A stretch of DNA of 64,000 nucleotides from assembly GCA_054600435.1 (NCBI GenBank), contig BAAIJX010000003.1:682001-746000 (forward strand). Reading direction: 5' to 3'. Shown here one piece after another: positions 39,972 to 55,499 of the stretch. Origin of the DNA: Neophaeotheca triangularis. Taxonomy: Eukaryota. The notes beneath the pieces were generated by a model, which was not told where the DNA came from, did not search any database, and saw only the letters and a list, made by a program, of their open reading frames with translations. The stretch's first letter is position 1. Each line of letters begins with the position of its first letter. Position numbers and translations under genes: made by a program.

Positions 39972-40703
39972 ATGCAACACCTCCTCGCCCTGCTCCTGGG
40001 CGTCCTACTCCCCCTCGTCTCGGCACTCAAGTTCGAGATCCAAGCCCACCCCGGCGCCGAGTCAAAGAGCAAAGAACGATGCATCCGTAACTTCGTCGCG
40101 CGCGACCAGCTCGTAGTCGTCACGACCGACATCTCCGGCAGCAGGGGCGACGGCATGGTGCTGAACATGCACGTAAGCCTGCCCCCTCCTCCCACCCTCC
40201 CCCAAAACCAAAAAAACTGAAACCCCTCCCTCCCCTCTCTCTAGATCAAAGACGCAGTAAACAACGACTACGGCCGCCCACGCGACGTGGCCGGCCACAA
40301 CCGCTACGCCTTCACTGCCCATGCCGACAGCGCCTTCGACGTCTGCTTCGAGAACATCCTCTCCACGGACCACAACAGCTATCCTCGCAACGCCGTAACC
40401 AGCCGCAGCGTCGAGCTGGACATCGACATCGGCGCCGACGCCAAAGACTGGAGTGCCATCCAAGCCACGGAGAAGCTGAAACCCGTCGAAGCGGACCTGA
40501 AGCGAATTTCCGAAGTCGCGAATGAGGTCGTGCAGGAGATGGATTATTTGCGCACGAGGGAGATGCGGTTGCGGGATACGAATGAGAGTACAAATGAGAG
40601 GGTCAAGTATTTTGCGCTTGTGACCATGGGGTTGTTGGTGTTGTTGGGTGGGTGGCAGATTGTGTATCTGAGGGCGTACTTTAAGTCGAAGCATTTGATT
40701 TGA
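39972..40703 (+). CDS. ERV25: p24 delta cargo receptor (intron 40173-40244)
   Basis: Signal peptide, [37 protein letters not shown] helix, YFKSKHLI tail. Confidence 0.95.
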
Positions 40704-40997
40704 GTTGGGAGACATGGTGTTTCAGAGGAAAGATTGGTTTGTTCAGGACGAGGCTATGGAGGAGCTTGTACCTTAGGTGTACGAATATGAAATACCCCGA
40801 GCTTCCAATTCAAAGCACTGCATCCATCTCCCGCATTTCAAACTCACGCCGCTCGCATAGGTGCTTCCAATCTCCAAGGCGACCCGCGGCGCACCACCTC
40901 TTAGCTCAAGGAACCCTCAAAGCATTCGCTCTCACCGCCGTTCCCTTCCATGCGCCTTTTGCGGAGCAAGTGCCAAATACACATGCTCCAACACTTC

Positions 40998-43710
40998 TCA
41001 ATGCGCATGCTTGGCCATGAATAAGCCAAGCTTGACCTTCATCTTGGTGATCTTGCCCTTTATCTTGCTTCCCAGCCCCTTGCCTGCCGTAGTAGTAGTG
41101 CCAGCAACACTCCTCGCTTCGTCCTTTTTCGGGGTAGCTGAGACCGCCACCGGCTCGCGCAGACCCGGATGGTTCTCTTGGTTGACGACAGAAGTGCTAG
41201 CGGTCGGGGGGACAGTAGTAGGGGTTGTCGCTGCCAACGGCGCAGGTGCTGGCGTGGGAGCACGCGTAAGCAACTTCTCCGTCTTCCCCACCTTCGCCGC
41301 CTCGCCCATCGTATCCCTGAGGCTAGGAGCGTTGGTCCAATCCAGCTCCCTTCTGATTTTTCGGTCCCGATTGACGACCTCCTGCTGTGAAGGCGAGGGC
41401 CTGATCGCCCGCATCAGGGCCTGCCTCTTCGAAGATGGCTTGCTCTTTGTCGAAGACGCGTTGTCGCTCGTACTGTGGGGCGGGTGGATAGCAGGTGTCA
41501 GAGGCGCATTCTCGACTCCACCCGCTGGCGTCATGGTAGGCGGTCCGCGCTGCGTTATCGAGGGGCCCGGGGGGATGATCGTTGTAGCAGGTTCCGCGGG
41601 ATAAGCGGGCACCGTTGGGATGAACCCAGTCACTGGCGCAGGCGTGGGCGAGACGCCGTCGCAGCCGTGGCATTCGTATAGCCGGGGGCCAGCGTAAGCG
41701 TAGCTGCTGTAGTTGGAGTCGCAGGAGGGCTGGCGGTGAGGGTAAGCGTTGCGAGCGCGCGAGACGTGGTGGGCGTAGGATGGGTAAGACGGGCCGTGAT
41801 ATTGATGAGGGCCGGAGCATCCGTGGCGGCAGCAGGGGGCTTGGTTTTGGGAGCGCCGGGGCGGGGAACTCCCTCGGTGCGTTTTGGTCGAAGCGTCCAT
41901 GATTCGCTCATCCATGGCTGTGGGTGGGCCGTGGTAATAGTTTTGACGAGAGCGGGAGCGAGAGCGTCGATGTCCTGTGTCGTGCGTGTCGCCGTAGGAA
42001 CTTGCCATGGGCCCTACTCCCGAGTGGATAGAGAGGTTGTCCCAGTAGTCTTTGACTTCGTTGTTGTAATGTTGCTCCATTGACTCGATAGATTTGATAG
42101 ACAGGTTATCATCGTCTAGGTTGGGCTTTTTGGGATACGCACGACCTGGCTTGGGATTGCCTTGCGCGTCCATACCAAGCTGATCGAGCTTAGCTGGACT
42201 TTTCTGAGGCACCGGGACGTACAGACTAGCAGTGTCCTGCCAGTCGTTATTGACGGTGTTCAGCGGGCTCGTGTGGCGACGAGGGAAGCCGGGGACGCGA
42301 ACAGATTGATTTGGCAGAGGTGGTATGGCAGACGCATCGGCACCGTCGTTTGCGCCGTCGAATATACCGTCGGTTTGCTAAGCTTCACGGACGTACGGCG
42401 GACACTTTGGAGTCTTGTTGTGGACGTGGAATGCACAGTCCCAGCCTCTACGGGCATCGAGGATCCCGTTTCGGTGGATTTCGATGGCATCGTTTGTAAA
42501 GTCGGCTGAGATCTCGGGGTTTTTTGCGAGTAAGGTCTTCATGCTGTCTGACAGGTAGACACCCTCAGCTTCGGGCCTCTCCACCAGACAGCGGTAAGCG
42601 GCTGTGTAGGTGAGAAAGTGGCGCATGTGATTTGCACCTGGCGTGAGACTGTAAATGTACTCCACGCGGTAGGCTGGGGCCGTCATGTTCTCCTTGAGGT
42701 AGTAGTGACGCAGGAGATCCATCACTGTTGAAGAGTTAGCACCTGGCAGATCTAACGCTGGGCATTGAGTTTGGATTACCCTCATTCTGCAGCACCTCGC
42801 TTTCGAACCTGTACGCAATGACATACAAACAGATGTAGTGGCCAGTTGAATGGAAGTCATTAGGGCCGTGCAAACCACCACCGTACAGCCACTTTACGAA
42901 CAACGTGAATCCAAACTCGTCCAAGTCTGAGAAGGTAGTTTTTTCGATCGGGACGCTCTCATTTCCTGCGGCATGGGCAGTCGGAGAGCCGGGGTTGGCA
43001 ACAGGCGCGCCAGCAGGAGCACTAGAGACGATGGACGTGTCCTTGGCGGCGGGCATCGCAGCCGTGCTCATCGGTGCAGTGTTGGCGCCACTTGCTAGTA
43101 CGGTACTAGAGGGGCTCATCGGGGACGCGGCGTTCTGCATCACAGTCTCGCGGACCTTCTCCTAGTAGGGACACTTCTCGAGCAAGACTTGGGTGTGCAC
43201 GTGGAAGTGACGCTTGTTGCTGCCAATTAGAAATGGAGTGAAATTGTCGGCGTCGTTTCGTAGGCTCGCTGTCGTGGGTGTCTCGGCGGTCAGGGAGGTA
43301 GGCGCAAGGGATGGAGTAGCAGCTGGCGTGGCCACTGCTGGAGTTGCTGTAGAAGTTGCTGTAGTGGGCGGGAGTTGGATCGCTGGAGCTACTGGACCGG
43401 CCGGCCCAGGCGGTGCAGACGCGCCTGGAAATGGTGCTGAAACGACACCAGGCGGGGTCATTGGTGTGGTCGTACCGCTTGGACTAGCCGGACTGTTTGC
43501 AGGTGCTAGAGTGGCTCCATGGGTAGGGTCAATTGGTTGCTGCGGAGTTGGATCAGTCTTGGTGTCGGTGTCGCTGTTGCGACGGCTACGTGGTCCCGCT
43601 GGCGTCAGTGCGTTAAACTTTTCGATGCGATCGCGCATGCTGCTGCTGCTCGCGGACTTTGAGACCGTCTTGTTTCCAGGCGGGACGTCGAGAGGCTTTG
43701 ACCCAGACAT
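40998..43710 (-). CDS. BTB/POZ-domain protein interrupted by in-frame TAG at 43162-43164 and 42378-42380 (intron 42725-42779); recoded gene or young pseudogene
   Basis: FLIGSNKRHFHVHTQVLLEKCPY*EKV, FTLFVKWLYGG, LYVIAYRF..LQNE|VMDLLR, CAFHVH; all segments share one frame after splicing. Confidence 0.7.
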
Positions 43711-44435
43711 CACGACCGTTGTCTGTCTGCTGGCCTGCACTCGAGCTGACGCTGTGAGTAGTATATAGGGCTTTCGGATCGTTGGCTAGCGTAAGTTGGC
43801 AGACAGGGTTCTTGGTGGGCGCCGCGGCTGCTCCAGGCAGTGGTTCAGAATGTCGTTTAGGAAGCTTGTGATGGAGGTAGTGATGTACCGTTCGTGGAGT
43901 TGGGGGCTTCTGTCTGGCGTTGGTGTTAGAGCGTCGCTCGGCGTTGACTTGACGATGCCGGTGCGCGTAGTCTTGAACGTGATAGGTGTAGTATGCGGTA
44001 ACGAGTGATGCTTTAACGGGCCTGCTGATGGTCTTGGGAGGCACTTTGAAGGCTGAGGTAAACTCGGAGAAGACAGGATAGGTAACAAATCTAGAATGTA
44101 GGCAATGGTGAAGGCGAGGCTCAGAGCCGTAGCTGATGAATGAAAGTTGCAAGAAATGGCAGTCCAGCTGGCCAGATAAGGGAGACCAGAGATGTAACTG
44201 TAGATATCTCGTGAACAGAATGTGAAGCCGCAGTAGGTAGTTTGTGTTCGTGTTGTTCCTAGAAGTCGAGGAAGCTGCCACAAGAGACGCAAGGAAGGTG
44301 AGAGCTTGCAGCAGGAGGGAAGAGCAAATCGAATTTGTTAGACACTACTTCCCTTCTTAAACTGCTGGGAACCATATTTAGCGCATACAAGTGGTATCCG
44401 TACATGGAATGTTTTGGGACCTTTTGAAGTTTGGC

Positions 44436-50902: not shown

Positions 50903-52646
50903 CTAACACCTTACCTCCACCCCCTCCTTACTAACAGTCAAATACTTAACGCCCTTATACGGCTTAACCTCCGGGCCCAACCCGCGACTCTTCTTCGTAT
51001 CCAATAACAAGCTTTCGACTTTCAACCCACTGGGCAACCAGCCCTTGACACTAAACGACAGCGTGGCAGAAGTGGGCATGAGCTCGCGATTCTTGGCCGT
51101 GTTCTCGGCGTCAGAAACGCCATTGAGAGCGGACTTGAAAGACTTTGTGCCGGGGACTTCTTGATAAGCCGCAGGACCGTCTTCGTCATAGTCGTAAGTT
51201 GAGGCGCTCATGCTGTTGACCGCTCCGCTGCTGCTGTCGTCGGGGTTTTCGTCCAGCGGGCCGACGACGGTGCAGCGGAGTACGGCGCCGGAGGCTGTGA
51301 GGTCTTTGGCGGGGATGCGCCATTCAACATTGCCGTCGGCGGGGTTCCAGTGGGCTTCGCCGCGTGTGGGACGCAGTTCGCTGACGTTGCGAACACTCGG
51401 TGGTATGGGAATGTGGACGGCGAGGTTTTCAAGAGCCGGGGCTTTGGAGTCGCCTGAGGCGCCGGCTCGGAAAGCGCCAGCGCGGGTGCTGAGATTGGAT
51501 TGTAGGGATGCTGCGGCGGCGGAGCGGGAGCCTGAGCTACTGGTTGAGGGCAGGGAAAGGCGAACTTCGAAGTCGGTGCCGTTGGAACCTAGGCCGGTTT
51601 TCATTTCGATCGTGGCGGGGAGGTTGAGGCTGTTGCTTGTGTTTTGGTTGTTCGTCAGGGTGAGGGATGCCTCTGGGCCGAGGAGATCTGTTTCGTAGCC
51701 GCAAAGGGCGAAACGTCCGTCGGGTGGTATGAAGGACATAACACCTTCGCTTTTCCATTTGCTTAATCTGACGCATGGATGGAAGACTGCCCTCTCCATT
51801 ACCTGACGTAATTGGTCCCCTCTATTAAACATGCCGCCTCCCTTTCCTCCCGTAGACATTGTAAGCAGGAGATCAGGCGTCCCCGACACCTTGCTCGTAA
51901 AAGCAACGCTACCATACGCAAACGCCGAAAGTGGTCTCCCAGAGGGCGCAAGCGTGACCTGCAGTGATTCGACCACGTCCACATACAGCTCATTACTCGT
52001 ATGCCTGACATTACTCCTCCGCCATGGGATAGCCGTGCCCTGGTTCTGCGGTGGGGGTTGCCGCTGCATTCCACTCCCAAAAGCTGTGTTACTCCCAGAC
52101 CCCGCTCCCAGCGCTGGTGTTGTTCCCGGTAGCCCGCCGAGCAAGTTTTTGAGCACACCCGGTCCAGTCTCGACAGAGTCGCGCAGAATGTTGGCCTCGC
52201 CTTGACAAATGACACCCGCGTCGGCCATTTCGGCCAGTATTTGCGCTACTATGTCATAGTTTGCGGCGATCTTGCTGGCGAGGAGAGGGCTTCCGAGGAA
52301 CTCCTCTAGGGCGTCGGCTACCCGGTGTAGGAATTCGAGGATTAGGAAGGGTTCGACGTCTGTGGAATTTGGCGCGAGGAATAAGAGGTTGTCTTGTATG
52401 ATCGAGAAAAGCAGCGTTGGAGGGTTGGTGGAGGACAGGTATATCAGGCTAGGGCGAGGTGAGGGGTGCTGAAGGTAGAGAGGCAGGAGAGTAGAGGGTG
52501 CTGGAGGGCGTCCGTTGTAGACATGGTCTAGCACGGGGTTGCTGATGAAGTAGTGTCAGATAAAGGAGAGCATATTGGCTAGGGATACAGAATGTACTTA
52601 CGTACTTGTGCTCGTCGAATATGTAGATTGCCTCGATGGCGGCCAT
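50903..52646 (-). CDS. APM3: AP-3 adaptor complex mu subunit (intron 52542-52605)
   Basis: IEAIYIFDEH, LEFLHRVADALEEFLG, IPWRRSNVRHTSNELYVDVVE, FHPCVRL, SFIPPDG, KPYKGVKY. Confidence 0.92.
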
Positions 52647-53093: not shown

Positions 53094-54530
53094 CTACATA
53101 CCAAGTCCAAAGACAGCACCAAGTATTGCCACAAGCGTCCCCGTAGAGCTGATAGTCAACCCAACGGCAGCATTATCAGTCTGCTGCACCGGTTCCTGCA
53201 AAGTCTGCGTAGGTACCGCCGAGCCGATCACTGTAGGAGTGCCCCCAGCATCCGTGGAGTTCGAGCCGGGAGTTGCAGTGCCATTTCCAGACGACCCCGA
53301 CTCCAAGCCCGAACCACCAAGGGCTGGCACACCGTCGCTGGTGCCCTTGTTGGCGAGAATGACTTCCAGGGCACTCAGCTGCTGTCCCAATCCTTCGGAC
53401 CCATCATACTCCTGGTCGGTCCAGTCGCTGCCGCAGAGCGTGCCTTGGTCGCCACCGGTGCAGGATGCGGCAGCAGCCCTGGCCGAGGCTCGAAGCACTT
53501 GGTTGATCCTCGCGGAAGTATCGCGGGTTCCTGACTCGCTGTCTTCGTCAGACACGAGCGCTTGCACGTTGGTCAGCCCCCTTGCCGCCAACGCGAGGAA
53601 AGCGAGCTGGTCGACGTTGCAGTTGCCCTGGGGCGCGCAAGCGACCTCGTATAGAATATTGGTTTCGTCCATAACGAAGACATCGAACGCGGTGAGCAAT
53701 TTCCCCATGAGACGGAGTGTCGTGGGATCTTCAGTTGCGTTGTAAATGTATGCCAGGCCGGACAGAAGCATACCAGAGTTGCTGCTCCATTGAATGTGGT
53801 TAATTGCCGTACAGTTTCTCATGTCATCGGTGCCGTCGAAGACTTGGCCATTTTCTGATAGAAGACCTACGTCGCCTAGCCACTCTAAAGTCTCCTCGGC
53901 CCAGTCGAGATAGGTCTCATTGCCGGTAAGACTGTGGAGACGCGCCGAGAGTTCGAACAGCATGCCGTTGCTCATGGAGTTCTTGTAGTTGTACCCGGCA
54001 TTGAAAGAGAAGATCTGCCACTTCAAGCCACCGCCACAGCTTTCCTCATTCCAGCGAGCGACCTGCGATTCCCACGCATTTTGAGCAAGCTGAAGCCACG
54101 AGTCCACCCCTTCGGTCTCAGGAAAAGGAAAGTCGCGCTCCGCCGCCGTGCAAGCAGCCAGTGCCCACGTAGCTTGGTCGTCGTTACCAAGCGTTTTGGA
54201 TTGATTGACCGGCATGTACTTGTCCTCTGGCCCGCGCTGGAAGAGAAGGGCTTGAGCAACCACGTCGTTGTATGAATCGTCGCCCGTTTTGGCCCAGTAG
54301 TTGACCATGGAGTCCCAAGTGAGCCCCGACTCCCACCAGTAATATGGGTCGCTGAAGAGACCGGGGATGCTGCCTTCGTCCTGTGGGTACATGTCTAAGA
54401 TATCCTCGACAATCGTCTTAGCCGCGCCGTTGATGGAGTCGGTGCTTTCCAGATCCAGGTCGATGGCGGCGGTGCATCCTGCCAGGCACACGATGCCGCC
54501 CAGGCCGAGGGACTGGGAAGAGACACGCAT
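53094..54530 (-). CDS. GH76 alpha-1,6-mannanase/transglycosidase (Dfg5/Dcw1 family), GPI-anchored
   Basis: Signal peptide, YYWWESG, LGNDDQATW catalytic DD, CGGGLKWQIFSFNAGYNYKN, hydrophobic C-terminal GPI signal. Confidence 0.93.
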   Translation of the reverse strand: MRVSSQSLGLGGIVCLAGCTAAIDLDLESTDSINGAAKTIVEDILDMYPQDEGSIPGLFSDPYYWWESGLTWDSMVNYWAKTGDDSYNDVVAQALLFQRGPEDKYMPVNQSKTLGNDDQATWALAACTAAERDFPFPETEGVDSWLQLAQNAWESQVARWNEESCGGGLKWQIFSFNAGYNYKNSMSNGMLFELSARLHSLTGNETYLDWAEETLEWLGDVGLLSENGQVFDGTDDMRNCTAINHIQWSSNSGMLLSGLAYIYNATEDPTTLRLMGKLLTAFDVFVMDETNILYEVACAPQGNCNVDQLAFLALAARGLTNVQALVSDEDSESGTRDTSARINQVLRASARAAAASCTGGDQGTLCGSDWTDQEYDGSEGLGQQLSALEVILANKGTSDGVPALGGSGLESGSSGNGTATPGSNSTDAGGTPTVIGSAVPTQTLQEPVQQTDNAAVGLTISSTGTLVAILGAVFGLGM

Positions 54531-55499
54531 TTTGTTAGGAGAAAGTAGCACAGTCTGGAAGAGATGTGGAGCAGTGAAACGAGAGAGATTCCAAAGCGGA
54601 ATGAGGGGGAGGCGATTGCTGGAGCGACCGCTAGAGCGACCTACCTGCCGCAGTGGTGGTATATCTTATATATATATCCTGGAGAAATAGGTACACTTGG
54701 ACATGCTAACGTGACGTCGTTTGCTGTTAGCTTCTGAAGGATCAAGAAGCTTTAGATAGTTAGTTGCTATTCTCTCGAGGCGCCGTGGAAGAGAGGTTGG
54801 TGTTCGGCCAATTGAGCATGCACAAACGCTCTCACGGCCTGGGGCCCGAAAGTTTAACTTACCTCCCTCCTGAGTCCTAGCACAAGCGCCACCTGCAGGA
54901 TTCCCCTGGCCCACGGGCATGGCTCGAAGGCTGTGCAGCTGGACCATGCTTGGCACTCATTACATGTCTGGTCACTGGTGTAACATCGAAGCTTCTTCCT
55001 TCCTTGAGACCTGTTGGCATCGGTGCTTTCACATCTGCCAGGGAGTCGACAAGGATTCGATAGCGCCTGAGCGATTCTAGTATGGCGTTGTCAAGTGGAT
55101 TGCGAATGCGAATGGAATAGCAAGCTCAATTTGAACACAAGGGGTTTCAGCCTGACCGTCGGTTCCCCGATACACAAGCTACATTTGCGCCTCCTGCATC
55201 ACCGTCCTGGTTCTCGCACTCTCGTCGTGTGTGAGCCTGCTAAAGAAGACCCAGCGTGCTCGAATTCGTGTGATTTCAAGCAAGCGCTGTGCCCCAAGCG
55301 TCGCATCGTTCCCCTTGCGGAGTAGCATGTCTGCTCAGTCGTGGTACTCGTCAAGCATGTAACGCATCTACCCTTTGTGCCATCCGCTTCAGTACGCTCA
55401 AGATGCCGCCACGTCCATGCCATGCCATGCGCTACAATTCCCGGAACGCCAAACCGCTTGCACCATGCGAGGTCGTTTGCGTAGGACGTATTTCTTAGC

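Follow-up and report, generated by a model that had tools for sequence, protein, structure and literature searches.

Two conserved in-frame TAG codons in a BTB/BACK-like gene of Neophaeotheca triangularis suggest programmed recoding

We analysed a stretch of 64,000 nucleotides (nt) from the Dothideomycete Neophaeotheca triangularis (GenBank assembly GCA_054600435.1, contig BAAIJX010000003.1, positions 682,001 to 746,000), hereafter the window, and focused on a gene on its minus strand, between 43710 and 40998, whose spliced reading frame is interrupted by two TAG codons (TAG1 and TAG2). Both stops are conserved, the open reading frames (ORFs) downstream of them are intact and constrained, and TAG recurs at columns of conserved tryptophan (Trp) elsewhere in the same protein subfamily. 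Taken together, the analyses suggest a live gene for a BTB/BACK-like protein that resembles a Cul3 adaptor and carries a long disordered tail. The conserved UAGs are probably overridden by programmed recoding, and we tentatively favour, somewhat ahead of stop-codon readthrough, a site-specific adenosine-to-inosine (A-to-I) editing of UAG.

Gene structure and the two in-frame TAG codons

The spliced gene starts with an ATG at 43710 and consists of exon 1 (43710-42780) and exon 2 (42724-40998), together 2658 nt or 886 codons, with stops at codon 183 (TAG), codon 426 (TAG) and codon 886 (TGA). TAG1 and TAG2 are the sole interruptions between the ATG and the final TGA; no other stop and no frameshift occurs in 885 codons. 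The parts of the gene are the following:

43165..43710, minus strand: segment 1, codons 1-182; disordered N-terminus, then the first BTB strands and helix; C-terminal end ...HVHTQVLLEKCPY
43164-43162, minus strand: TAG1, codon 183, in frame; context TAC TAG GAG AAG; aligned with the phenylalanine (Phe) of the BTB motif SPYF
42780..43161, minus strand: segment 2a, codons 184-310 and base 1 of codon 311; low-complexity insert, then the remaining BTB core (FSDLDEFGFTLFVKWLYGG...EVLQNE)
42779-42725, minus strand: intron of 55 nt; GTAATC, a GCTAAC branch box and a terminal CAG; shifts the frame by one base
42381..42724, minus strand: segment 2b, codons 311-425; helical BACK-like domain with C-x2-H-x-H-x5-C; end ...KCPPYVREA
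42380-42378, minus strand: TAG2, codon 426, in frame; context GAA GCT TAG CAA ACC; aligned with the aromatic residue of E-[AP]-[WYF]-Q-[ST]-D-G
41001..42377, minus strand: segment 3, the extension, 459 codons (427-885); conserved N-terminal half with cysteine/histidine (Cys/His) patches, variable middle, conserved basic C-terminal tail
41000-40998, minus strand: final stop TGA, which ends the spliced frame

The 55-nt intron agrees with the homologs, which join ...LQN-VMDL... at the same point, and with the NCBI protein model for this locus (P0001), which joins 42781 to 42725/4. The 182 amino acids (aa) of segment 1 are also on record as a separate ORF (P0074), the Pfam BTB domain of the homologs covers the region of segment 2a, and 70 homologs of segment 2b were found at E<=1e-3. 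Within the extension, the first ATG is its codon 69, while an ORF of 404 aa (40998..42212) is listed with GTG as its start codon. The GC content at the locus is 56-59% and is not lowered, and GC by codon position gave no clear separation of the coding sequence from its flanks.

An earlier reading of these letters (the original prediction) had described two UAGs in one gene, with products of 182, 425 and 885 aa. Both UAGs indeed lie in the spliced 886-codon frame, with segments and stops mirrored in the ORFs of a relative, and the three products match stops at codons 183, 426 and 886. The 459 stop-free codons after TAG2, the first 55 of them ahead of the 404-aa ORF, were confirmed, and both TAGs have an A three bases 3' of the editable one (position +3; UAGGA, UAGCA). 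The Cys/His patches CCRHGC and ECHGCDG are present as well, and are also kept in the relative. The proposed absence of any frameshift over 2.7 kb is true once the 55-nt intron is removed, but not of the raw DNA, where the two TAGs stand in different frames.

Conservation of the stops and of the downstream frames

A relative, seen in a Logan assembly, has an ORF counterpart for each of segments 1, 2 and 3 of the window gene: (i) P0075 (200 aa) is 65% identical to segment 1 and ends in ...HTQVLLEKCPY, at the same residue before TAG1, (ii) P0007 is 73% identical over 115 aa and ends in ...KCPPYIQEA, just before TAG2, and (iii) P0002 (486 aa) begins with an ATG about 6 codons after the second stop and matches the extension. 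The alignment of P0002 with the extension shows 54% identity globally and in-frame indels only, with long identical blocks in the first 280 aa and conservation of the last 60 residues, and it includes the 68 extension codons that precede the first ATG. P0002 and P0007 are each found in 2 contigs, the longest of 45547 nt; the contig data fit their being neighbours, with a putative common frame and putative TAG stops. The extension had been put forward as an in-frame continuation of the gene, and the comparison with P0002, open throughout and with its indels in frame, supports it as real coding sequence.

Variation within the species was examined in another sample labelled as N. triangularis (X2), which differs from the window at 42 positions in 2901 nt (about 1.5%). 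No difference is listed at TAG1 or TAG2, and all 5 T>C changes (plus strand, the reversion type) are among those listed, none of them on a TAG; 3 further differences are not shown, being two A>T and one G>A by tally. A contig with a single difference elsewhere also covers TAG1, unchanged, and TAG1 is likewise unchanged in contigs of X3 and X4, runs belonging to two other studies. The X4 contig (another organism label, guessed to be RNA) is of 261 nt (43158-43418) and has one synonymous difference at 43234; such contigs drop rare variants. A further run with the same species label (X6) gave no match to the locus at 80% likeness, and none of the runs recorded as RNA contains it. At 41306-41475 and 42997-43174, X2 yields two contigs each, at about half depth and mutually different, i.e. 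two haplotypes, and the X2 sample is thus diploid or heterozygous, or a mixture.

Between X2 and the window, codons 184-425 carry 10 synonymous and 6 nonsynonymous differences (pN/pS 0.18, p=0.0008), of which segment 2b accounts for 5 and 1, respectively; segment 1 has 2 synonymous and 4 nonsynonymous differences. Codons 184-425 are thus under purifying selection in haplotypes that all bear TAG1. The constraint on the extension is seen in the comparison between species, not in polymorphism. The original prediction had also judged the locus unlike random decay, which agrees with the retention of the stops and of three open segments in the relative (54-73% identical) and in X2, and with the purifying selection past TAG1.

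Aromatic columns and the recurrence of TAG

In the family alignment, the TAG1 column (the Phe of SPYF) comprises 47 rows: Phe in 37, Trp in 3, leucine in 3, the window stop, the end of P0075 just before it, and 2 uninformative rows. The three members with Trp at this column are L001 (exon 1, frame 1), P0090 and P0092, which read SPFW, SPYW and SVYW. Despite the predominance of Phe, a TGG ancestor for TAG1 is possible. The TAG2 column, in an alignment of 79 rows, holds Trp in 31, tyrosine (Tyr) in 18, Phe in 5, serine in 3, glycine in 2, threonine in 1 and the window stop in 1; 3 rows end just before it (P0007, P0045 and P0047, the latter two being distant, motif-less members whose placement here is unreliable), and the remaining rows end earlier or are gapped. 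In the nearest subfamily all 7 rows that reach the TAG2 column have Trp, followed by Q-[STFK]-D-G, and in the window TAG is followed by QTDG. TAG2 thus stands where relatives have Trp, or a codon that a single change turns into TAG; of TAG1 this is true only in part.

A metagenome search with the family returned 18 loci, in 17 of which the C-terminal exon could be read through; the remaining one (L018) is cut short after 66 codons. An internal stop is present in three of these 17 loci, in each case a TAG at the Trp of the motif DCxWHxH (GCG TAG CAC in L002; GAA TAG CAC in L004=L005), and in each the conserved sequence continues past it. The C-terminal exon of the loci read through contains no stop outside this Trp column, and at the SPYF column no stop is seen in the 7 loci that include exon 1. 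Another four ORFs (P0006, P0019, P0021 and P0085) stop just short of the DCxWHxH Trp. Overall, among the 79 rows, this column has Trp in 54, Phe in 13, Tyr in 1, leucine in 1 and a stop or an ORF end in 7. The window gene has Phe at this position, which lies inside its C-x2-H-x-H-x5-C motif.

A tree was built from 27 of 69 rows, and the number of origins was read off it. The rows with stops fall into two separate clades (support 98/96 and 89/83), each of which also contains rows with Trp, a pattern that would need several exchanges between TGG and stop. Under random one-step nonsense mutation, TGG is the source in 4-10% of paths and TAG the outcome in 47-63%; the stops at Trp columns confirmed in DNA are TAG in 3/3 distinct genes. 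Within the family, stops recur only at aromatic columns.

Protein family and fold

The window protein's own two pieces match no Pfam family; its BTB domain is split by TAG1, a low-complexity insert and the intron. Three homologs exceed the Pfam BTB (PF00651) cut-off of 20.5 bits, namely P0018 (40.7), P0078 (23.8) and P0005 (21.2). A structure model was built of the homolog P0009 (NCBI: Neohortaea acidophila), from an alignment of 35 rows. This model (pLDDT 81.8, pTM 0.75) folds residues 57-290 as a single unit, and its best matches in the Protein Data Bank (PDB) are BTB or BTB-BACK chains of SPOP, KEAP1, KLHL and KBTBD proteins (Foldseek E 6e-4 to 1e-2), with a TM score of 0.62 against the SPOP BTB chain 4j8z_A. 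In it, a helix of the BTB core begins at residue 83, the Phe of SPYF; residue 266, the Trp of DCHWHVH, sits inside the nearly invariant C-x2-H-x-H-x5-C, and residue 283, the Trp of EPWQFDG, is close to the end of the fold. The C-x2-H-x-H-x5-C motif itself (P0009 264-275; window 42397-42435) is a candidate zinc site in the C-terminal helical domain.

The likeness to the SPOP, KEAP1 and KLHL Cul3 adaptors thus consists of homologs that pass the Pfam BTB cut-off and of a P0009 model that matches the BTB structures of these proteins. In contrast to them, the fungal proteins form a Dothideomycete-wide subfamily with its own C-x2-H-x-H-x5-C and long disordered tails, have no MATH or Kelch domain, and are putative binders of Cul3. 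All named members are from Dothideomycetes (Elsinoe, Diplodia, Friedmanniomyces, Neohortaea, Extremus, Cryomyces, Baudoinia, Lasiodiplodia, Sphaceloma and Oleoguttula), with the exception of one Quercus suber label. This protein, P0092 (703 aa; 'succinate dehydrogenase assembly factor 2, mitochondrial [Quercus suber]'), is 46% identical to P0006 over 41% of the query; the plant record probably contains fungal sequence or a fused model.

Most family members end 2-6 residues past the TAG2 aromatic column, and the nearest subfamily has tails beyond it (about 230 residues more in P0004; P0079 has 497 aa in all). Comparison of the extension with the tails of P0079 and P0004 by BLASTP gave no significant match (best E 0.24, a co-linear 'SVV..H.P ... 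G.K.KG'); the basic tail motifs 'FG.KM.G' and 'LGSKIKG' are alike by eye only. The extension matched no Pfam family, a search of the Atlas gave 'Pal1 family' with a score of 0.82, below the useful range, and no relative emerged when metagenomes were scanned with the extension.

Public gene models

The window encodes P0001 (NCBI: hypothetical protein, Neophaeotheca triangularis) exactly, in three blocks (43119-42781, 42725-42426 and 42377-41001). This model begins after TAG1, and takes out TAG2 by an in-frame 'intron' of 48 nt (42425-42378), which deletes VHNKTPKCPPYVREA, a stretch conserved in the family; the relative has VHKISQKCPPYIQEA there. Likewise P0079 (NCBI: Extremus antarcticus), the exact product of locus L004 in six blocks, omits 57 nt (L004 3786-3842) that encode VKLHRCGEHDARHGADCE, in which part of the Cys/His motif is included, and thereby avoids the TAG. 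Judging from the conserved residues that they delete, we take both mini-introns to be annotation artefacts, and the same error is likely to occur elsewhere in these genomes. Two further annotated introns of 54 nt in the tail of the P0079 gene (L004 3924-3977 and 4026-4079) are in frame and stop-free, and the frame is open through both.

How the stops may be overridden

According to the scheme that we tentatively favour, UAG would have taken the place of sense codons at two aromatic positions, and selection would have kept both. Site-specific A-to-I editing, in this Dothideomycete perhaps triggered by stress or tied to some phase of development, would convert UAG into UIG, read as UGG (Trp). 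Unaltered mRNA would give a 182-aa fragment without a complete BTB domain; with UAG1 overridden, a 425-aa product would comprise the complete BTB/BACK-like unit and end about where most family members end; with both overridden, the 885-aa form would add the tail with its conserved Cys/His patches and basic C-terminus. The disordered N- and C-terminal parts are likely partner-binding regions, and control at the two stops could determine how much adaptor is made and whether it bears the tail. That the stops are decoded at all, that editing does so, and that the process is regulated is what we infer from the sequences. With slightly more reserve, we propose that extremotolerant Dothideomycete black fungi (Neophaeotheca, Extremus and relatives), which have no known sexual cycle, may have a UAG-to-UGG mRNA recoding system of independent origin, of which this BTB/BACK-like subfamily would be a recurrent target, with TGG and TAG exchanged several times and the full-length protein gated after transcription, perhaps by stress.

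The model for such a scheme is the correction of premature stop codons by A-to-I editing, known from Fusarium and Neurospora. The excerpts of this literature on which we draw count 71 genes of this kind in F. graminearum, with two sites in 6 and disordered regions in 71%, and describe sites at which TAG derives mostly from TGG and the same site arises repeatedly (PMC10776026). The N. triangularis gene shares with these genes an in-frame UAG within an intact, conserved ORF, at a place where relatives have TGG, which is kept between species; a column hit repeatedly across lineages; two sites, as in some of them; a protein rich in disorder; and a U at -1 with purines at +1, +3 and +4. Flanks were compared with the Fusarium preferences (-2 C/U, -1 U, +1 A/G, +2 G, +3 A/G, +4 A/G; PMC9600606), of which the TAG triplet itself fixes two, so that -2, +2, +3 and +4 are free. 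TAG1 matches at 6/6 positions (4/4 free) and TAG2 at 5/6 (3/4 free). The differences are that the host is a black yeast of the Dothideomycetes, outside the classes in which editing has been demonstrated, that its stops are known from DNA alone, that the known machinery (the Ame1-Tad3 interaction) is described as a Sordariomycete innovation, and that the TAG1 column is mostly Phe, not Trp. A host difference of another kind is that N. triangularis is not known to have a sexual stage. Editing is nevertheless conceivable in such a fungus, because the conserved premature stop of Fusarium CHE1 is reported to be edited in vegetative hyphae and stimulated by oxidative stress (PMC11169179).

Several observations weigh against editing, or against the conservation on which it builds. 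Of the 43 informative rows at the TAG1 column, 37 have Phe, whose codons do not give TAG by a single mutation. Family members tolerate Tyr or Phe at each of the three stop columns, and Tyr inserted by readthrough would therefore serve too. The stops of the relative, and those of P0006, P0019, P0021 and P0085, are seen as ORF ends only and not as TAG, and polymorphism in the extension (6 synonymous and 11 nonsynonymous differences between X2 and the window) gives a pN/pS of 0.60 that is not significant (p=0.22). L002 and L004 match the Fusarium flanks at only 3/6 positions (1/4 free), and two ordinary TAG stops of the window do so at 4/6 (2/4 free), so that the flanks discriminate weakly. Both editable As lie in small loops of the minimum-energy fold, but this placement is not significant (z -0.70 and +0.17) and is shared by a normal stop used as control. 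As regards the machinery, the mRNA function of Tad2-Tad3-Ame1 is described as gained in the ancestor of the Sordariomycetes (PMC11087585, PMC10776026). The excerpts at hand report restorative UAG editing in fungi only from the Sordariomycetes, with an independent case in the Pezizomycetes, and state that its presence in other classes of the Pezizomycotina is yet to be determined (PMC10776026). Our search found no literature on mRNA editing in Dothideomycetes, a class that the Fusarium papers mention in passing. Searches for Extremus antarcticus with stop codon found none, those for stop codon readthrough in Dothideomycetes nothing relevant, and among the papers listed that name Neophaeotheca triangularis, judged by titles and the beginnings of abstracts, none is on this gene.

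Among the alternatives, programmed readthrough comes next, and we hold it to be only somewhat less likely than editing. It would consist of a low but selected near-cognate insertion at UAG (in yeast Tyr, glutamine or lysine), giving minor 425- and 885-aa isoforms beside the 182-aa product. It needs no lineage-specific machinery, and a conserved stop followed by a conserved in-frame ORF is its classic comparative signature. Insertion of Tyr would explain why TAG rather than TGA stands at aromatic columns that accept Tyr or Phe. C-A follows three of the four TAGs seen in DNA (CAA at TAG2, CAC in L002 and in L004). The original prediction had called UAG-CAA a leaky context, and this is partly so at TAG2, where the 3' hexamer CAAACC matches the yeast consensus CARNBA at 5/6 positions and CARYYA at 4/6, as these are given in the excerpt available to us (PMC4132726), but not at TAG1, where GAGAAG is no known leaky context; the full hexanucleotide is found at neither stop. 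The resemblance to the UAG-CARYYA/CARNBA readthrough described for tobacco mosaic virus and yeast (PMC4132726) is therefore in the CAA after TAG2 and in the long conserved in-frame extension, while the hexamer is partial at one stop and absent at the other, the stops are serial, one lies in a folded domain, and no stable structure is predicted downstream of either (z +1.6 and +1.9), nor does Rfam match anything in 40500-44400. Serial stops would multiply two small efficiencies, and two serial UAGs, one of them in a non-leaky context, appear to fit low-yield readthrough poorly. A TAG inside the folded domain, as in the E. antarcticus-type gene, would leave the unextended product truncated. The recurrence at Trp columns (at the CxW column, a stop or ORF end in 7/79 against Trp in 54/79) is what TGG-to-TAG exchange under editing predicts. 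Lastly, as far as the excerpt consulted goes, yeast reads UAG as glutamine, Tyr or lysine and inserts Trp at UGA (PMC4150775), not at UAG, whereas the DNA-confirmed stops at Trp columns are all TAG (3/3).

All explanations other than editing and readthrough are, taken together, about as likely as readthrough in our estimate. Improbable, to begin with, is true termination, in which only short products would matter (the 182-aa one, or an internally started BTB fragment ending at TAG2) and the extension would be started separately or be a relic. The family mostly ends 2-6 residues past the TAG2 column, so that the cost to the domain would be small, P0001 could start after TAG1, and P0002 of the relative has an ATG soon after its stop. 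Yet the window extension has no ATG for 68 codons, a stretch conserved with P0002, and QTDG after TAG2 keeps the subfamily motif WQ[ST]DG. The BTB strands and helix of segment 1 are predicted to form a domain only with segment 2, as the P0009 model folds residues 57-290 as a unit, and a start after TAG1 would lose them; nor would a relic of 459 codons stay open over 46% protein divergence. More improbable still is removal of the stops by very short in-frame introns that end at the AG of TAG (48 nt at 42425-42378 here, 57 nt in L004). Both skipped stretches do run from GT (a valine codon) to TAG, have lengths that are multiples of three and were accepted by gene predictors, but they encode the conserved family residues VHNKTPKCPPYVREA and VKLHRCGEHDARHGADCE, the latter including part of the Cys/His motif. 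Their 5' sites (GTCCAC, GTCAAG) are poor and no CTNAY branch motif is visible by eye, whereas the real intron has GTAATC and GCTAAC; for TAG1, the sole GT...TAG option is of 39 nt and lies in conserved coding sequence. Least probable is a decaying pseudogene, for instance through TpG-to-TpA changes of the repeat-induced point mutation (RIP) type. Such a change does turn TGG into TAG, the family has many members, and two TAGs are unremarkable where TAG makes up 47-60% of one-step nonsense outcomes. Against it stand the two stops and three open segments shared with the relative at 54-73% identity, the lack of any other lesion in 885 codons at a GC content of 56-59%, the significant purifying selection past TAG1, and the confinement of stops to aromatic columns, with none at the glutamine codons CAG/CAA that are also RIP targets. 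We discount decay since the stops and the sequence downstream of them are conserved and the same pattern is found elsewhere in the subfamily.

If editing is the true explanation, the system would have arisen once more or extend more widely than reported, and would be linked to stress-tolerant and apparently asexual fungi, for which this locus and its relatives offer a concrete test case of restorative UAG editing in the Dothideomycetes. If readthrough is, this would be an unusual cellular gene with two conserved serial readthrough stops. In either case, the mini-introns in public models of the family (P0001, P0079) are invented and cost these models conserved residues.

Open frames and TAG usage in the window

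A count over all six frames of the window gives 10 TAG, 3 TGA and 3 TAA codons that are flanked on either side by 100 or more open codons, and open frames by themselves are not above chance in this GC-rich DNA. The case for more than chance is made by homology and conservation, not by the open frames. Of 14 further ORF pairs in the window that have a TAG between them and were inspected, none looks protein-like on translation; as no other protein-like ORF is interrupted by TAG, the recoding would be gene-specific within these 64 kb. A genome-wide reassignment of TAG was considered as well and is ruled out by two neighbouring genes that end at TAG where their domain or tail ends: the AP-mu gene (50903-52555), whose last residue is position 259/259 of the Pfam domain, and the GH76 gene (53094-54665), in which a hydrophobic tail precedes the TAG. 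No tRNA genes were found in the window.

Of 20 large ORFs in the window, 17 match a Pfam family at E<=0.001; the 20 end in TGA (15, strongly predominant), TAA (3) and TAG (2), in a sample that is small and in which some ends may be exon ends. Upstream of the gene described here, a third in-frame TAG (43788-43786) lies 26 codons 5' of the ATG and is preceded by 183 open codons (43786-44337, minus strand). This stretch has a translation that is not protein-like and a G-poor strand, and is probably the 5' leader of the gene.

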